DNA of 7,505 nt from Candidatus Woesearchaeota archaeon (GTDB lineage: Archaea; Nanobdellota; Nanobdellia; Nanobdellales; Nanobdellaceae). The stretch is from contig CAYXSZ010000069.1 in assembly GCA_964468425.1 (NCBI GenBank), forward strand, positions 1 to 7,505. The letters are read 5' to 3'. The notes beneath the pieces are model-generated. The model was given only the letters and a program-made list of their open reading frames with translations. It made no database searches and was not told where the DNA came from. Made by a program: the position numbers and the translations under genes. How positions within the stretch are numbered: the first letter of the stretch is position 1; the number at the start of each line of letters is the position of its first letter. Positions 2,535 to 7,185 of the stretch are shown in pieces.

Positions 2535-3683
2535 ATGATCGTCAAAGCCAAGGTTTCTGAAGTGACTGAAGCCTTCCGGGATACGAAGAGCAAGCTACTC
2601 TTGCGAGTTTTGGAGGAAGGAAAACGCGTATTCGCGCTTAAACTACCAAACTTCAAGGGTCTTCTCGGCTTTAACCTTCTCCCAAATCGTAGAATCGGAA
2701 CAGAGCTTGCAGATCTTGTAAAGAGATTTGGTTTAAGGGGTATCTTGCATTCAGATGAACTTCCCGCTTATGGAATTTCGGAGTTGGAGGTAGAAAAAGT
2801 TAAGAAACTCCTTTCTTGTGAAGAGAACGATGCTTTTGTCTTGATTCTTGTTGAAAATGAAGAAAAAGCTAAAACAATTTTCAAGCACATTGTAAACCGA
2901 TTGAACGAAATGATAGAAAAAATCCCAAAGGATACGCGAAAAGCTAATGAAGATGGAACTACTTCTTTCCTCAGACCGCAACCAGGTTCTGCGAGAATGT
3001 ATCCAGAGACGGACTTGCCTCTAATTCTTGTAGATCGTAAAGAAATCGATAGAAGTTCTTATAAAGAGATCGTTTACAAAATAACTCACGGAGACAAAGT
3101 TTATGAATTGAAGTTAGCAAGATTAAAAGAAAAAAATGTAGATTTGTATCTAAAGCTTAAAGAAAACGAAGATTTGTTCGTTCTCGACTCTCTAGATCCC
3201 GAATTTCGAAGAGAAGTCCTAAAGAAACTTGGATTCAACGAAAGCCAGATTGAGAACATTCTTTGGTCGGACAACCCAGATTTGTTTGAAAAATACGCTA
3301 GAAAACTGAAGCCATCCCTCATTTATTACATCTACTTTATGCTTCCTTCCGAAGTTGAAAGCGAGTTTGGCGAAAAGGTTTATCCCGACGAAGACTTCAT
3401 AGAGCAAGCTGCTGACCTCATCTCTAAAAAATTAATCACTAGAGACGCTTTAAAAATTCTTCTTTACGAATACTCCAAAACTCGGAAGCCTCTTAAAGAG
3501 ATTATAGAAGAAAAGGGGTTGAAGAAAGTTTCTGGATCCGAGCTTGAGAATAAAATAGACGAGTTACTTAGCAAATACAAAAATTTAGAAAAGAAAAAAT
3601 TAATCAATAAAATTCTAAGCGAGCTAAGACTTATCGCCGATCCTAAAGAGATAATAGAAATTGTAAATCGTAAACTCAAATAA
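2535..3683 (+). CDS. gatE: Glu-tRNA(Gln) amidotransferase subunit E, C-terminal fragment only (insertion domain, last cradle strands, helical domain and YqeY-like tail)
   Basis: The 382-aa protein contains LKLPNFKGLLG, NRRIGTELAD, GILHSDELPAYGISE, DAFVLILVENE, TRKANEDGTTSFLRPQPGSARMYPETDLP, then a helical K/E-rich tail. These are hallmark GatE blocks from the middle to the C-terminus of the roughly 620-aa archaeal protein. The N-terminal catalytic half is absent. Confidence 0.85.
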   Translation: MIVKAKVSEVTEAFRDTKSKLLLRVLEEGKRVFALKLPNFKGLLGFNLLPNRRIGTELADLVKRFGLRGILHSDELPAYGISELEVEKVKKLLSCEENDAFVLILVENEEKAKTIFKHIVNRLNEMIEKIPKDTRKANEDGTTSFLRPQPGSARMYPETDLPLILVDRKEIDRSSYKEIVYKITHGDKVYELKLARLKEKNVDLYLKLKENEDLFVLDSLDPEFRREVLKKLGFNESQIENILWSDNPDLFEKYARKLKPSLIYYIYFMLPSEVESEFGEKVYPDEDFIEQAADLISKKLITRDALKILLYEYSKTRKPLKEIIEEKGLKKVSGSELENKIDELLSKYKNLEKKKLINKILSELRLIADPKEIIEIVNRKLK

Positions 3684-4606
3684 TGCTTTGCTCGTTTTGC
3701 AAAAATAAGGCAGTTTACAAAAGACAATCCACCTTTTACTGCAGGGAGCACTTCATTAATTATTTTTTGGAAAAAGTACGCAAAACTATACAAAATTTTT
3801 CTCTGCTTGAACCGGGAGAGACTGTTGGAGTCGGGATTTCGGGCGGAAAGGACTCCGTAAGTCTTATGCATGTTCTTTCTCAGCTAAAAGAACTTAAGCT
3901 AAATTTAATAGGAATACACATAGACGAGGGAATCAAAGGATATCGAGATGTTCTGACAAATTTTCTTGAGGAGCTTGCGAGGAAATACAAATGGAATATT
4001 AAAATTTACTCCTTTAAAGATTATTTTGGGTTCACCCTTGATGAAGCGGTTAAGTTGGTTGATGTGAAACCGTGTACAATCTGCGGTGTCTGGAGGCGCT
4101 GGATTTTTTGGAAAGCCTCCCAAGATTTAAAGCTGGACAAAGTCGCGGTAGGACATAATCTTAACGACGAAGCTCAAACTTTCATCATAAATCTCCTGGA
4201 AGGAAACTTGAAAGATCTTGCTAAAGGGGGACCAAAAGTTGGAATTGTAGAAGAATTGTTCGTTCCAAGAGTCAAACCTTTTTTCCTAGTTACCGAAAAG
4301 GAAACAACAATTTATTCTCTTCTCAACGAATTTTATCCGCCAACAAGAGAATGTCCTTACATTAGAGGACAAACTAGAGATTTTATTCGCTCTAAGCTTT
4401 ACTCCTTGGAAAACACCCATCCCGGATTTCAAGAATCTTTAATAAATGGTTACATAAATGAAATAAAAAAACTTAGAAATATTTATCAGCGAAGGATTAA
4501 GTCCGAAGTAGTCCGCTGCTCTGTTTGCGGTTATCCATCGACCAGGGAACTCTGTCGGGCGTGCGAGCTTAGGGAGATCGTAGAAAAAAATGCAGGAAAA
4601 AATTAA
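3683..4606 (+). CDS. PP-loop ATPase, tRNA 2-thiouridine synthetase of the TtuA/NcsA (Ncs6/Ctu1) family
   Basis: The protein has an N-terminal zinc finger (CSFC...C..H) and a PP-loop (SGGKDS). It has Fe-S ligand candidates CTIC plus ECPY, a GHNLNDEAQT block, and a C-terminal zinc finger (CSVC...CRAC). The start overlaps the gatE stop by 1 nt (TAATG at 3681-3685). Confidence 0.85.
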   Translation: MLCSFCKNKAVYKRQSTFYCREHFINYFLEKVRKTIQNFSLLEPGETVGVGISGGKDSVSLMHVLSQLKELKLNLIGIHIDEGIKGYRDVLTNFLEELARKYKWNIKIYSFKDYFGFTLDEAVKLVDVKPCTICGVWRRWIFWKASQDLKLDKVAVGHNLNDEAQTFIINLLEGNLKDLAKGGPKVGIVEELFVPRVKPFFLVTEKETTIYSLLNEFYPPTRECPYIRGQTRDFIRSKLYSLENTHPGFQESLINGYINEIKKLRNIYQRRIKSEVVRCSVCGYPSTRELCRACELREIVEKNAGKN

Positions 4607-5060
4607 CAAAAAAAGACTCTGGGTTTCCATTTTCCTGGCGTCTTTAGTTCTTATTTGGCTAGACTTCTTTGTGGGAAACGCTCTTAGCGAGAAGAAACCT
4701 CTTTTGCTTGGAATCTACGATGTCTCTTTTTTAGGATATTCGCTAGCCGTTTATCCCCTTCTCCTTTTATCTTTTCTAACAATTCCCATAATTCTTTATC
4801 CAGAGCGGTGGAAGCTCTGGATTTTTGTTGGATTAATGATATGGACGCTAAATGACGCCTTGTGGTTCGTAGTCCGACCTGACGAGTGGATAAAATTTTG
4901 GTTTTTCAAGGGAGAAGTAATTTTTAAGTGGTGCTTGATAAACAACGAAGTCTGCATTTACTCAACAGATTATTTAATGGCTTTCTCAATTATAACTCGT
5001 CTACTTATTGGAATATACATCTACAAGAAGTGGATTCAGGGAAGGGCGTGCTCTTCATAG
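4590..5060 (+). CDS. Hypothetical integral membrane protein, about 4 TM segments, Trp-rich
   Basis: Four hydrophobic stretches are visible: WVSIFLASLVLIWLDFFV, FLGYSLAVYPLLLLSFLTIPIILY, LWIFVGLMIWTLNDALWFVV and YLMAFSIITRLLIGIYIY. The N-terminus is positively charged. There are 10 Trp in 156 aa. It overlaps the upstream CDS by 17 nt. I recognised no family. Confidence 0.55.
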   Translation: MQEKINKKRLWVSIFLASLVLIWLDFFVGNALSEKKPLLLGIYDVSFLGYSLAVYPLLLLSFLTIPIILYPERWKLWIFVGLMIWTLNDALWFVVRPDEWIKFWFFKGEVIFKWCLINNEVCIYSTDYLMAFSIITRLLIGIYIYKKWIQGRACSS

Positions 5061-5084
5061 CTCCGCCCCGATGGATTTCATCAT
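5036..5084 (-). ncRNA. C/D box sRNA (2'-O-methylation guide), canonical archaeal architecture
   Basis: The minus strand reads ATGATGA (C, 5084-5078), aatccatcgggg (12 nt), CGGA (D', 5065-5062), gct, ATGAAGA (C', 5058-5052), gcacgcccttcc (12 nt), CTGA (D, 5039-5036). The C and D boxes are perfect, C' and D' each have one mismatch but keep the GA, and the two 12-nt spacers are symmetric and GC-rich. The core is 49 nt. Confidence 0.7.
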
Positions 5085-5090
5085 ATTTTA
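5083..5090 (+). promoter_or_regulatory. Putative TATA box (ATATTTTA) for the trm5-family gene
   Basis: The box is centred about 26 nt upstream of ATG 5112, which fits a leaderless mRNA. It abuts or overlaps the C box of the antisense-oriented sRNA. Confidence 0.4.
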
Positions 5091-5111
5091 AGCTTTGGAG
5101 CTAATTAAATA

Positions 5112-6155
5112 ATGGCTTTCGATATAATCGGAGACATCGCGATCCTAAAACCTCCTCTTAAGATGTCTGAGGAAGAGTATATCAAATATATTCAAGAAAA
5201 ACACAAATATATTCAAACAATTTTGCTCCAGGAAACGGACGTTTTACCTCCTTATCGCGTCCCTAAGTATAAAATTCTTTGGGGAGAGAACAAAACCGAG
5301 ACTGTTCATAAAGAATACGGTTTGAGGTTTAAAGTAGATGTTGTTCGAGCTTATTATTCGCCTAGGCTTGCAGAAGAGAGAAAGAGAATCGCAAGCCAAG
5401 TTAAAGATGGTGAAAAAGTTTTAGTTATGTTTGCAGGAGTCAACCCTTACTCAGTTTACATTGCAAAATATGCAAATCCTGAAATCATTTATGCTGTTGA
5501 GTTAAATCCCTTTGCTTTTAAGTATGCTTTTGAGAATGCTAAGTTAAACAAAGTTGAAAGTAAAATTACAACTATCTTGGGAGATGTGAGAAAAGTAGCA
5601 CCTTTTATTCAAGTTTTATCAAACAAGGACGCAGTTGTTCACTGCAAGCGAGATTACCTTTTAGACCTGCTCGATGCAAATCCAGAAATCAATAGGTGTT
5701 TTCTGGTAGGCTTTGACGAAGCCTACTATGATTTGGTTGAAAAAATAAGAGCTAGGAAAAAATACTTGGTTGTTTACGAGGACTTAGACTATGCGCAGTT
5801 CGATGGAGTCTTACTAAACCAAGACAACCTAGTTCTTCGAGACTACGAAGAAAATTCTCATATAGAGTTCGAAAAATTCGGCATCGAATTCGATCGGATC
5901 ATTATGCCTCTTCCAAAAGAAGCTGACACTTTCCTAGACGTCGCGATCCCATTGATAAAGGAAGGTGGAACAATCCACTTATATCAATTCTTTTTCGAAG
6001 AAGAAATTCCTGAAAAAGCTAGAGAAATTTTAGATAAATATTCGAAGCTTTTGAAATTCGAGTACGAGATTTTAAATGTTCGAAGGGTTGGAGATATAGC
6101 TCCTAGACAGTATAGAGTTTGCATAGACTTCAAAGTTACTCAAAAGCTTTTCTAA
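5112..6155 (+). CDS. trm5: Trm5/TYW2 (Met-10+ like, COG2520) family tRNA methyltransferase, lacking domain D1 and carrying an internal insertion of about 95 aa
   Basis: FDIIGDIAIL marks the D2 domain start. WGENKTETVHKEYGLRFKVDVVRAYYSPRLAEERKRIA is the family signature. VLVMFAGVNPYS is SAM motif I, IYAVELNP is motif II, ILGDVRKV is motif III, and FDRIIMPLPKEADTFLD is the motif IV region. GGTIHLYQF and APRQYRVCIDFKV follow. By recollection of M. jannaschii Trm5, ILSDVREVDVKGNRVIMNLPKFAHKFID is collinear with this protein except for residues about 164-259. Confidence 0.85.
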   Translation: MAFDIIGDIAILKPPLKMSEEEYIKYIQEKHKYIQTILLQETDVLPPYRVPKYKILWGENKTETVHKEYGLRFKVDVVRAYYSPRLAEERKRIASQVKDGEKVLVMFAGVNPYSVYIAKYANPEIIYAVELNPFAFKYAFENAKLNKVESKITTILGDVRKVAPFIQVLSNKDAVVHCKRDYLLDLLDANPEINRCFLVGFDEAYYDLVEKIRARKKYLVVYEDLDYAQFDGVLLNQDNLVLRDYEENSHIEFEKFGIEFDRIIMPLPKEADTFLDVAIPLIKEGGTIHLYQFFFEEEIPEKAREILDKYSKLLKFEYEILNVRRVGDIAPRQYRVCIDFKVTQKLF

Positions 6156-7185
6156 TCTCCCGAGCAGTTTCCTTTGGTAGAGTATAGGCTAGCTTTTCCA
6201 AGTGAAGAGTCTCCAAATACCCTTCAGCAGTCGTTCCTTGTTCTGAGGAAAACCTTGAAGCTATTCGTATTATTGGATAAACTCCAGGCTCTTTAACAAA
6301 CGTAGAGTCTATTATACTCATGTTAAATGCAATCAGATCTAAGGTATTTATATATTTGACTAAGAATTCGTACAATTCTTTAACGAAACCTTCTAAGTTG
6401 ATTTCTGCCATATTGAAGATTCCAAAGCTTTTAACAAGTCCAAGTACATCGTGATGTCCAAAGGGAGAAAAACTAGCAACCCAATCTATGAATTTCCCCG
6501 AGTAAATCACCCTATCTTTAAAGTTTAACTCGGATTGCACATAGTCTTCGACCAGCGAACTCTTAAATCGTGCAAAGTGTTCCTTAGTCTTCTCAAGCAA
6601 GATCCTATGATAGTTTGTTGGAATGGTATTTTGTTCTATTTGGAAATGTAAATGTTGCTGAGATGCTCCCGCGAGTAAAGTGTGATTCAAGTGGATGTAA
6701 ACGAATTTGGAACTTGAATCGTTTCTGTAGTTGGAGCTTACGAACTCTTTTATAAGCTTAAAAGAGATTATGAGATCGTAAACTGGGATTTCGTCTATGA
6801 ACTCCGCGTGCTTTTCAACGGTTGGTATCACTATTGCATGATATTTAGAGTACAACTTATCGGGTACGAATAAGATGGAATTCTGTCTTGATAACTTGGA
6901 TATCTTGAACCTATTGTCTATAGAGAGTCTTAAGAGTTTGTTTATGTTTTGCTTACAAAAGGGACAAGTTTTGTCGGCGCTAATCATCAAGATGTACTCA
7001 GATTTGTTAATTTTTCTCACCTTCTTGAAGGGATTTATCTTGTTCCAGAAGCCAGTAATCGGATCCTTTCGAAGTTCTAGGTATTCTGGGCGAATAGCGT
7101 CGTCCCCAGGCTCGATGCAATGATAAGGGATGATAACTCGCTCAAAGGGAAGGGAATTTTTACCATATTGGAGTTCCCTTTCCAT
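6136..7185 (-). CDS. galT: Galactose-1-phosphate uridylyltransferase-like nucleotidyltransferase (GalT branch of the HIT superfamily)
   Basis: LRKDPITGFWNKINPFKKVR corresponds to RYNPLTGxW...P.R..RP. CPFC is the zinc CxxC motif. AGASQQHLHFQI corresponds to the active-site GxSxxHxHxQ. LVEDYVQSEL corresponds to MLVDYVQREL. WVASFSPFG and the C-terminal GYLETL...LPKETAREIRKA correspond to GYEML...LTAEQAAERLRA. The protein is collinear with GalT over the full length. Confidence 0.8.
   Translation of the reverse strand: MERELQYGKNSLPFERVIIPYHCIEPGDDAIRPEYLELRKDPITGFWNKINPFKKVRKINKSEYILMISADKTCPFCKQNINKLLRLSIDNRFKISKLSRQNSILFVPDKLYSKYHAIVIPTVEKHAEFIDEIPVYDLIISFKLIKEFVSSNYRNDSSSKFVYIHLNHTLLAGASQQHLHFQIEQNTIPTNYHRILLEKTKEHFARFKSSLVEDYVQSELNFKDRVIYSGKFIDWVASFSPFGHHDVLGLVKSFGIFNMAEINLEGFVKELYEFLVKYINTLDLIAFNMSIIDSTFVKEPGVYPIIRIASRFSSEQGTTAEGYLETLHLEKLAYTLPKETAREIRKAFE

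Follow-up and report, generated by a model that had tools for sequence, protein, structure and literature searches.

The window analysed here, a stretch of 7,505 nt, contains a short region on its minus strand that faces the end of a membrane-protein gene (CDS 4590-5060) and lies just ahead of trm5. A reading made from the sequence alone had proposed that this region encodes an archaeal C/D box small RNA (sRNA), which raises the question of whether such a gene is present and, if so, which nucleotides its RNA would modify. The element is judged to be a genuine C/D box guide-RNA gene with a probability of roughly 80%, based on its anatomy, on statistical support and on complementarity to rRNA. 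It appears to be an ordinary representative of a well-known archaeal type, most likely directing methylation of 23S rRNA near the 5' end.

Re-reading the minus strand from 5084 to 5036 returned the proposed order of boxes and spacers (ATGATGA, 12 nt, CGGA, GCT, ATGAAGA, 12 nt, CTGA), and all of the coordinates given by the sequence-only reading proved right (Table 1). Its arithmetic also stands: the sRNA overlaps CDS 4590-5060 by 25 nt, is separated from the trm5 ATG at 5112 by a gap of 27 nt, and has the N+5 position of both guides correctly placed. That the gene was unannotated is trivially true of a metagenome contig. Boxes D' and C' each deviate once from the consensus, with the GA and UGA..GA cores intact, and the layout is symmetric, with two 12-nt spacers around a 3-nt linker (12-3-12). 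Every defining sequence-level feature of an archaeal C/D sRNA was thus found, in the layout that is commonest in N. equitans.

Table 1. Features of the predicted sRNA gene and its putative promoter, in coordinates of the window
Feature	Position	Strand	Basis or remark
Whole predicted C/D box sRNA gene, 49 nt, box C to box D	5036..5084	minus	sequence, scanner, shuffles, Rfam, model R1
Box C, AUGAUGA (canonical RUGAUGA, exact consensus match)	5078..5084	minus	sequence
D' guide, AATCCATCGGGG (RNA AAUCCAUCGGGG), 12 nt	5066..5077	minus	N+5 = C5070, opposite target G
Box D', CGGA (one change versus CUGA, GA retained)	5062..5065	minus	sequence
Linker, GCU, 3 nt, D' to C' (k-loop)	5059..5061	minus	sequence
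Box C', AUGAAGA	5052..5058	minus	sequence
D guide, GCACGCCCTTCC (RNA GCACGCCCUUCC), 12 nt	5040..5051	minus	N+5 = C5044, opposite target G
Box D, CUGA (exact canonical)	5036..5039	minus	sequence
Putative archaeal box A (TATA-like), TTTAAT	5104..5109	minus	25-26 nt upstream of first box C base

The base composition of the two guides supports the same interpretation. Their G+C content of 58% and 75%, against about 38% in the local DNA, agrees with the claim that they are richer than their surroundings, and a pair of G+C-rich guides within A+T-rich DNA is what would be expected if selection favours pairing with rRNA. One property counts against the guide-RNA reading: in the free sRNA, an internal GGGGCG/CGCCCU stem could form between the guides (z = -2.15).

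The host is an uncultured hot-spring nanoarchaeon, known from contigs of 7.5-9.6 kb. Full-length relatives of its Trm5 (52-65% identity) come from Nanopusillaceae, Nanoclepta and Nanobdella, and its identity to the protein of named Nanoarchaeota is at most 57%. When genomes were searched with Trm5, the matches were all to Bathyarchaeia and Thermoproteota MAGs (42-48% identity), with Nanoarchaeota absent. Upstream of box C, the position of the TTTAAT hexamer suggests an sRNA promoter. In N. equitans, TTTAAA stands 26 nt upstream of transcription starts (Randau 2012, PMC3491384), sRNAs under a promoter of their own have a purine as first nucleotide (PMC3491384), and the published sequences of these self-promoted sRNAs begin at box C or a few nucleotides from it. 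A second box-A-like hexamer, TTTTAA at 5086-5091, lies 26 nt upstream of the trm5 ATG and is interleaved with the putative sRNA promoter.

A scan for the whole architecture matched once in the window and not at all across related loci totalling about 170 kb. Of 3000 shuffled versions of the window with dinucleotides preserved, 1 contained the architecture, a figure that is somewhat optimistic because the scanner tolerances were chosen after the motif had been seen. A search with C/D models had been put forward as a check by the sequence-only reading. A model built from 24 verified N. equitans C/D sRNAs, with the candidate excluded (model R1), scores the element at 14.9 bits with E = 1.7e-4 in the window; on 162 kb the candidate has E = 0.0037, and the remaining significant matches fall in Nanoarchaeota loci only. 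No Rfam family reaches its gathering score: sR5 (RF01304) gives 21.7 bits against a threshold of 40, sR28 (RF01136) 18.6 against 39, sR46 (RF01130) 20.1 against 50, and snoR9 (RF00065) 19.2 against 90. These four C/D families nevertheless align to the candidate, on its own strand, along the entire model and through the box positions (E = 0.1-0.5). Scores of 18.6-21.7 bits against thresholds of 39-90 place the element outside sR5, sR28, sR46 and snoR9, which are guide-specific families.

Targets were scanned on proxy rRNAs in place of the host's own, namely the published 16S and 23S rRNA of N. equitans and those of more distant archaea; further 23S sequences, retrieved via spurious ORFs, are at most 77% identical to that of N. 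equitans. Over the full N. equitans 16S and 23S, the best site of the D guide is 23S nt 51-62. Positions 2-11 of the guide form 10 consecutive Watson-Crick pairs with nt 52-61, GAAGGGCGUG, spanning N+5. This is longer than the at least 9 consecutive Watson-Crick pairs to rRNA or tRNA spanning N+5 that a published survey takes as its criterion (PMC4644070), as counted on a proxy rRNA and not on the host's own. The same 10-mer is present in four published 23S sequences (P. calidifontis, T. tenax, N. equitans and I. hospitalis) and in loci L025 and L026. The D match alone is not rare, since a 10-nt Watson-Crick site in this G+C-rich rRNA is also found by 6.7% of composition-matched shuffled guides. 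The D guide probably targets the 5' domain of 23S rRNA at 5'-GAAGmGGCGUG-3', where Gm marks the nucleotide predicted to be methylated (N. equitans G55, E. coli about G54). Among the tRNAs of the window and the loci, none matches either guide at up to two mismatches.

For the D' guide, three sites in N. equitans 23S score similarly: nt 21-32, nt 1295-1306 and nt 1326-1337. The first of these, hereafter site A, is joint best in the scan of 16S and 23S. Site A (CCCGGUGGAU) lies 30 nt upstream of the D site and offers 10 consecutive pairs over nt 22-31, including one G.U that splits the Watson-Crick pairs into 4 + 5. By the published criteria this site qualifies only through the relaxed rule for double guides. 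Its duplex, at -18.7 kcal/mol, is the most stable among the real D' candidates; for comparison, a published guide-target pair of M. kandleri sR54 has -19.4 kcal/mol. Randomising the guides brought both matches to within 100 nt in only 4 of 5000 trials (joint frequency 0.0008), and with the D' guide shuffled, a match close to the real D site arose in 11 of 5000. As a positive control, the sRNA of locus L008, transferred onto N. equitans 23S, forms 11 and 12 pairs; verified N. equitans guides form 9-11 pairs with their own rRNA. No perfect D' match can occur at the 5'-end site, since every sequence seen conserves a G at target positions 6 and 12. The likeliest target of the D' guide is 5'-CCCGmGUGGAU-3' at site A (N. 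equitans G25, E. coli about G23), an assignment that is tentative.

The 12-mer targets predicted by the sequence-only reading are right in their 10-nt cores, whereas the outermost guide positions are probably unpaired; the D site reads GUGG and not GUGC in seven published archaeal 23S sequences. That reading had also made itself dependent on an rRNA site of at least 9-10 nt, and on the N. equitans proxy the D guide finds 10 Watson-Crick pairs and the D' guide 10 pairs including the one G.U.

Other placements of the D' guide were set aside. Beyond the D site in the downstream direction, a helix around E. coli nt 105 has only UGGAU in common in N. equitans. A 16S site, CUAAUCCCCGAUAGG, offers just 7 contiguous pairs and the weakest duplex. 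The N. equitans hairpin at nt 1295-1306 gives 9 Watson-Crick pairs, but its sequence is hypervariable across lineages, which makes a D' match there unlikely in the host organism.

Anatomy, statistics and proxy-rRNA complementarity are the observations; from them we infer that the gene is transcribed, that its RNA assembles into an RNP and directs methylation, and which D' target it uses. An RNA of about 49-55 nt would be made from the minus strand, starting at or beside box C, and would probably have a box-A promoter of its own. Boxes C and D would form a k-turn, and D' and C' a k-loop, each of which would bind L7Ae and then Nop5 and fibrillarin. The 12-nt spacers would pair with the target, and fibrillarin would 2'-O-methylate the target nucleotide that faces the fifth guide position ahead of D or D'. 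As a double guide, the RNA may clamp two neighbouring segments of nascent 23S rRNA, methylate both, and could help local folding.

The sRNA was not found upstream of trm5 in L008, L014, L027, L010, L012 or L028, and in the closest relatives this spot holds a tRNA gene or plain spacer. Neither guide is present among the 26 N. equitans sRNAs. In three strain variants the sRNA is identical, and with an overall divergence of only 0.3-0.9% these are too similar to reveal selection on it. Two metagenome scans, one for both exact 12-mer targets and one for homologues of the sRNA, gave no match, but they carry no weight: the collection does not contain the source contig, and the target scan placed the D target upstream and included terminal guide positions that probably stay unpaired. 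In the literature, the only matches to the guide and target strings were unrelated primers.

The main competing explanation keeps the C/D sRNA and moves its D' target to the 5' strand of a covarying helix at about 23S nt 1326-1337 (site C), so that the RNA would not be a 5'-end double guide. Site C reads UCCCGGUGGCCU in N. equitans, UCCCGAUGGCUU in L016, UCCCGAUGGCGC in L025 and CCCCGGCGGCUC in M. kandleri, followed each time by a conserved AGAAGG. A perfect target, CCCCGAUGGAUU followed by AGAAGG, may exist in the rRNA of this lineage: it differs from L016 at 2 of 12 positions, both of them variable and covarying between lineages, a freedom that the two conserved G residues deny to the 5'-end site. 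In addition, the published double guide sR85 of M. kandleri brackets the site C helix. Against this, every available sequence of site C allows at most 8 Watson-Crick pairs plus G.U, its duplex is weaker (-15.2 to -15.8 kcal/mol, versus -18.7 at the 5' site), and the perfect sequence is hypothetical, since the only exact CCCCGATGGATTAGAAGG matches found (two, in viral contigs) belong to a phage protein-coding gene. Site C would also put the two targets about 1270 nt apart, whereas among 489 archaeal sRNAs about half act as double guides whose targets lie within 100 nt (PMC4644070). This placement is possible but on balance doubtful.

Three further explanations depart from a fully functional methylation guide. 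It could be a decaying, unexpressed or half-functional gene in which the boxes survive while the D' guide has no target or transcription is lost, nanoarchaeal sRNA genes being mobile and short-lived. The absence of a homologue at the corresponding position in relatives and among the N. equitans sRNAs would fit, as would the departure of CGGA from the D' consensus and the lack of a clean D' site of at least 9 Watson-Crick pairs conserved across the proxies; moreover, about one third of the 489 archaeal sRNAs lack an rRNA target, and many of the sRNAs have one 'empty' guide (PMC4644070). Decay is nevertheless improbable in view of four intact boxes, two intact 12-nt spacers and an intact 3-nt linker, G+C-rich guides inside A+T-rich DNA, a box-A hexamer at the right distance, and a D guide with an all-Watson-Crick 10-mer to a site used by another archaeon. 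A chance arrangement of motifs, antisense to the end of a CDS and to A+T-rich spacer and devoid of RNA function, would draw on the shortness of the boxes, the frequency of ATGA-type words in A+T-rich DNA, the constraint of the overlapping CDS on 25 of the 49 nt and the missed Rfam gathering scores. It is hard to credit given the rarity of the architecture in the shuffles and in related DNA, the E-value from the independently built model R1, and the finding by both spacers of neighbouring 10-nt 23S sites, at positions that published sRNAs also target. Equally slight is the probability that the element acts primarily in cis, as an antisense or promoter element that regulates either the divergent trm5 promoter or the mRNA of the membrane protein at its 3' end. 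The overlap with the last 25 nt of the CDS and the interleaving of the putative sRNA promoter with TTTTAA ahead of trm5 are compatible with such a role, and L7Ae is reported to bind k-turns in mRNAs (PMC5539422). However, overlap of sRNA and mRNA is the norm in N. equitans, with no regulatory role demonstrated there (PMC3491384), no sequence feature demands such a role, and regulation in cis leaves the guide-RNA architecture and the rRNA complementarity unexplained.

With a genuine guide-RNA gene as the preferred reading, one well-supported guide RNA is added to the small Nanoarchaeota set outside N. equitans, and one or two 2'-O-methylated G are predicted at the extreme 5' end of 23S rRNA. 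Current understanding is unchanged; what is gained concerns annotation and comparative maps of rRNA modification. When metagenome-assembled genomes are annotated by their ORFs, sRNA genes of this kind are overlooked, and the approach used here can recover them.

The closest known counterparts are the sRNAs of N. equitans, which belongs to the same phylum, although the candidate's host represents a different, uncultured lineage. N. equitans has 26 abundant C/D sRNAs, encodes fibrillarin (NEQ125) and Nop56 (NEQ342), and the majority of its sRNA genes overlap mRNA sequences (PMC3491384). In a comparison set of 24 of these sRNAs (sequences from PMC4644070, supplementary file 1), the candidate's AUGAUGA is the commonest C box (9/24) and its AUGAAGA the second-commonest C' box (5/24). 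The candidate likewise shares box D CUGA with 16 of the 24 and the 3-nt linker with 22, and its two 12-nt spacers have the commonest length on both sides (D' 20/24, D 18/24). NeqsR03 and NeqsR01 have the same build, ATGATGA-12-NNGA-3-ATGAAGA-12-CTGA, with no terminal stem. The D' box is the exception: the N. equitans variants include CAGA, AUGA and CCGA but not CGGA, a type known from the published sRNA lists of M. kandleri and I. hospitalis. As with the candidate, N. equitans sRNA genes overlap or abut protein genes, including genes for RNA modification, and have a box-A promoter about 26 nt upstream of a purine start, of which the candidate carries a putative equivalent.

The guides themselves resemble those of more distant archaea. 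The D' guide of I. hospitalis sR449, CCACGCCCUUCG followed by CCGA, shares positions 2-11 and the register with the candidate D guide, GCACGCCCUUCC followed by CUGA (PMC4644070), so both point to the same G of 23S GAAGmGGCGUG. A published alignment indeed marks I449 (I. hospitalis sR449) at the candidate's D site (PMC4644070). The two RNAs differ in that sR449 carries the matching guide in its D' slot, has an unrelated second guide and G+C-rich Ignicoccus-type boxes, and comes from another phylum; the likeness of the guides may reflect common descent or convergence.

M. kandleri sR54 provides the nearest parallel to the proposed function, as a double guide for the same two segments of the 23S 5' end, and the published alignment marks K54 (M. 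kandleri sR54) at both of these sites (PMC4644070). Pairing analysis matches its D guide GAUCCACCCGAG to UCGGGUGGAU, where it points to the nucleotide homologous to that of site A, and its D' guide to GAAGGCCGUG. Relative to the candidate, the D and D' guides thus sit in exchanged slots. sR54 also has a 13-nt D' spacer and a second-site register that is off by one nucleotide (A, not G), and its host is a euryarchaeon, unlike the candidate's nanoarchaeal host. Circular sRNA intermediates occur in archaea. It is conceivable, though rather unlikely, that the candidate, sR54 and in part sR449 form one ancient double-guide family that clamps the first ~60 nt of nascent 23S rRNA, with D and D' exchanged by circular permutation via such intermediates. 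If that were true, sRNA-assisted folding at the 23S 5' end would be conserved from Euryarchaeota to Nanoarchaeota. As it stands, sRNAs of three distant archaeal lineages appear to address the same two rRNA segments with guides in different slots, which is in line with published proposals that sRNA genes exchange guides and that rRNA folding is helped by double guides.

The minus strand of the window, read from 5084 down to 5036, carries the boxes and spacers of a C/D box sRNA gene exactly where the sequence-only reading had placed them. Its account of the neighbourhood was also accurate: the candidate overlaps the last 25 nt of CDS 4590-5060, whose stop codon is the TAG at 5058-5060, and lies 27 nt from the trm5 start at 5112. 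The guides are indeed GC-rich (58% G+C for D' and 75% for D, against ~38% in the DNA around them).

Elements of the candidate C/D box sRNA, in 5' to 3' order of the predicted RNA
Element	Sequence	Position in window	Strand	Basis
Box C	ATGATGA	5084-5078	minus	sequence read
D' guide	AATCCATCGGGG	5077-5066	minus	sequence read
Box D'	CGGA	5065-5062	minus	sequence read
Linker	GCT	5061-5059	minus	sequence read
Box C'	ATGAAGA	5058-5052	minus	sequence read
D guide	GCACGCCCTTCC	5051-5040	minus	sequence read
Box D	CTGA	5039-5036	minus	sequence read

The window differs only at strain level from JGI metagenome contigs (99.1% identical to L001, 99.7% to L002). A genome scan returned distant Bathyarchaeia only. 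In a protein search, full-length Trm5/Taw22 relatives (52-65% identity) came from Nanopusillaceae, Nanoclepta, Nanobdella and a 'Nanoarchaeota archaeon', and the host is therefore an uncultured nanoarchaeon. Nanoarchaeum equitans, which has genes for fibrillarin and Nop56, makes 26 abundant C/D sRNAs; the majority of its sRNA genes overlap mRNA sequences, in several cases those of RNA-modification genes (PMC3491384).

To assess the architecture statistically, a scanner was written for RTGATGA, 10-13 nt, CTGA (≤1 change), 2-9 nt, TGATGA (≤1 change), 10-13 nt and CTGA. It found one match in the window, none in ~170 kb of related loci and one in 3000 dinucleotide-preserving shuffles of the window, a figure that is somewhat generous since the tolerances were chosen after the motif was seen. 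A sequence-only model, R1, was built from an alignment of the 24 sRNAs that could be parsed among the 26 RNA-seq-verified ones of N. equitans (PMC4644070, supplementary file 1), with the candidate left out. With R1 the candidate scores 14.9 bits, at E = 1.7e-4 on the window alone with filters off and E = 0.0037 in 162 kb. Only sRNA-like genes from two further Nanoarchaeota loci match better; on Bathyarchaeia loci R1 gave nothing significant. In E-value mode, Rfam placed four C/D box families on the candidate's exact strand and position, namely sR5 (21.7 bits), sR46, snoR9 and sR28. All four fall below their gathering scores, as expected because these families are guide-specific, and the candidate belongs to no single Rfam family.

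The boxes are not enclosed by a terminal stem, a trait shared with the N. equitans sRNAs. The free RNA is predicted to form an internal stem, GGGGCG/CGCCCU (-17.3 kcal/mol, z = -2.15), in which the 3' end of the D' guide and the D' box pair with the D guide, so the two guides are partly complementary to each other. Assembly of the RNP would need to open this stem.

As a proxy for the host's own rRNA, N. equitans 16S and 23S sequences (1500 and 2990 nt, both complete) were transcribed from the alignments in the PMC4644070 supplement. Both guides were scanned against them in register, with a Watson-Crick pair required at N+5, the fifth guide position upstream of box D or D'. The sequence-only reading had applied the N+5 arithmetic correctly. 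The D guide qualifies: its best site is 23S nt 51-62, AGAAGGGCGUGG, where guide positions 2-11 give an unbroken run of 10 Watson-Crick pairs; the nucleotide predicted to be methylated is G55 (E. coli G54 by motif alignment). The predicted 12-nt target holds in its 10-nt core; all published archaeal sequences have GUGG rather than GUGC here, so the outermost guide base is probably unpaired. The same 10-mer occurs in the 23S of P. calidifontis, T. tenax and I. hospitalis in the published alignment, and in two retrieved archaeal 23S genes (L025 and L026). Such rRNA-bearing contigs can be reached via spurious 'proteins' that match antisense translations of rRNA. In the published alignment this site is assigned, as a predicted target, to I. 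hospitalis sR449 (PMC4644070), whose guide, CCACGCCCUUCG followed by CCGA, shares positions 2-11 and register with the candidate's GCACGCCCUUCC followed by CUGA. Taken by itself, the D match is equalled by 6.7% of shuffled guides.

For the D' guide, two N. equitans sites tie (A and B) and cross-lineage comparison adds a third (C). Site A, 23S nt 21-32 (GCCCGGUGGAUG), precedes the D site by 30 nt. The 10 pairs it offers are consecutive and include a single G.U, which involves a target G shared by all the sequences examined; methylation there would fall on G25, the equivalent of E. coli G23. Site B, a hairpin at nt 1295-1306, offers 9 Watson-Crick pairs and a G.U. Because this hairpin's sequence is hypervariable across lineages, another nanoarchaeon would be unlikely to keep the match.

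Site C (23S nt 1326-1337), which forms the 5' strand of a covarying helix, is a serious though less probable rival. It reads UCCCGAUGGCUU in L016, UCCCGAUGGCGC in L025 and CCCCGGCGGCUC in M. kandleri, a pattern of variation that the perfect D' target, CCCCGAUGGAUU, would fit, while the conserved G residues rule out a perfect match at site A. In N. equitans itself, site C provides only 9 pairs, 2 of them G.U. Site A is preferred over B and C for four reasons. With real sequences, no other candidate site forms a duplex as stable (-18.7 kcal/mol; the others reach about -15.5). It would make the RNA a double guide, like about half of archaeal sRNAs (PMC4644070), and the published M. kandleri sR54 is marked at both 23S 5'-end segments (PMC4644070). 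Nearby paired sites are also rare by chance: both guides had sites of at least 10 pairs no more than 100 nt apart in 4 of 5000 randomisations, and a shuffled D' guide fell near the real D site in 11 of 5000. Under the target criteria of PMC4644070, site A qualifies only by the relaxed double-guide rule.

The use of N. equitans rRNA was checked on a C/D box sRNA-like gene at L008 1095-1143 (+) and L009 1103-1151 (+) (R1 E = 1.4e-4); L008 comes from a nanoarchaeon with a Trm5 60% identical to that of the window. Its D guide, CCGGAGUAGCUA, matches N. equitans 23S nt 2537-2547 by 11 Watson-Crick pairs; NeqsR14 also uses this site and has GGAGUAGCU and register in common with it. At nt 2650, 114 nt away, the D' guide makes 12 pairs, one of them G.U. 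Verified N. equitans guides make 9-11 pairs with their own rRNA. With this sRNA as positive control, N. equitans rRNA works as a proxy for another lineage, and the L008/L009 RNA is probably a double guide conserved across Nanoarchaeota. A further C/D box sRNA-like gene lies in Nanobdella aerobiophila AP019769.1 (L012 11525-11572, minus; R1 E = 2.5e-6), laid out as UGAAGA-AGCAAGGCAUUA-CUGA-GAU-AUGAUGA-AACAUCGAUAUG-CAGA. It sits between two tRNA genes ~600 nt downstream of trm5, recalling the tRNA-sRNA dicistrons of N. equitans, and its guides found no good site in N. equitans rRNA.

Upstream of the candidate, TTTAAT (5109-5104, minus) lies 25-26 nt from the first base of box C. This spacing agrees with N. 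equitans, where TTTAAA is the rule 26 nt ahead of a purine start (PMC3491384) and where the sRNAs described as having a promoter of their own start at box C or no more than a few nt from it (sequences in PMC4644070). The plus strand has a box-A-like TTTTAA (5086-5091) 26 nt ahead of the trm5 ATG. With two such hexamers, the 27-nt spacer 5085-5111 seems to carry back-to-back divergent promoters, and the trm5 mRNA is probably leaderless.

Among the related loci examined, no conservation of the candidate was found beyond strain level. It is identical in three strain variants that differ only 0.3-0.9% overall, and the tail of the overlapping protein does not vary within a cluster of 97-99% identity. 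In the two next-closest lineages a minus-strand tRNA gene occupies the corresponding place upstream of trm5 (L008 6689-6763; L014 47-121), and the closest relative, L027 (1-195; Trm5 65% identical), has only an A+T-rich spacer; in all three a small-RNA gene or spacer adjoins the same tRNA-methylase gene. None of the N. equitans sRNAs has the candidate's guides. Absence at the corresponding position is weak evidence because sRNA genes are mobile (PMC3491384), and two empty metagenome-contig scans carry no weight, the collection lacking the window's own contig.

Several other features were noted. The 382-aa GatE-like ORF at 2535-3683 (+) is limited to the GAD insertion domain, the YqeY tail and, from the GatB/GatE catalytic domain, the final ~45 profile positions; it lacks the N-terminal ~230 residues, and the ORF upstream codes for a SpoU-like methylase. 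It resembles the C-terminal half of a split gene, of the kind described for other N. equitans genes. The methyltransferase domain of Trm5/Taw22 (5112-6155, +) is interrupted, with Pfam matching it in two stretches; relatives outside Nanoarchaeota align over only about 257 of 347 aa, and nanoarchaeal ones are 305-353 aa long, which is evidence of an insertion of roughly 50-90 aa specific to the lineage. The 349-aa ORF at 6136-7185 (-) has no Pfam match and contains an HLHFQ motif resembling the HxHxQ of HIT/GalT-type nucleotidyl transferases. Within the 23S rRNA gene of L025, an NCBI archaeal MAG locus, a LAGLIDADG homing-endonuclease ORF (8094-8606, -) lies where the blastn match to N. equitans 23S breaks, probably marking an rRNA intron.

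The combination of four boxes, symmetric 12-nt spacers, a 3-nt k-loop linker, the R1 match and a D target in proxy rRNA supports the sequence-only reading of the candidate, which is predicted to work like an archaeal C/D box sRNA. It shares the commonest N. equitans anatomy (12-nt D' spacer in 20/24, 3-nt linker in 22/24, 12-nt D spacer in 18/24). Its C and D boxes are the commonest of that set and its C' box the second-commonest; only the D' box, CGGA, has no exact counterpart, N. equitans having CCGA, CAGA and AUGA. As an addition to a known type of guide RNA, it is of low to moderate significance. One aspect is mildly unusual: both 23S 5'-end segments are also targets in Methanopyrus, for a double guide whose D and D' slots are exchanged, and in Ignicoccus a guide addresses the 23S 5' end in the candidate's register. 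By pairing analysis, M. kandleri sR54 directs its D guide to the nucleotide that is homologous to the one at site A, and its D' guide to one nucleotide off the candidate's D site. This shared targeting could reflect descent with permutation or convergence.
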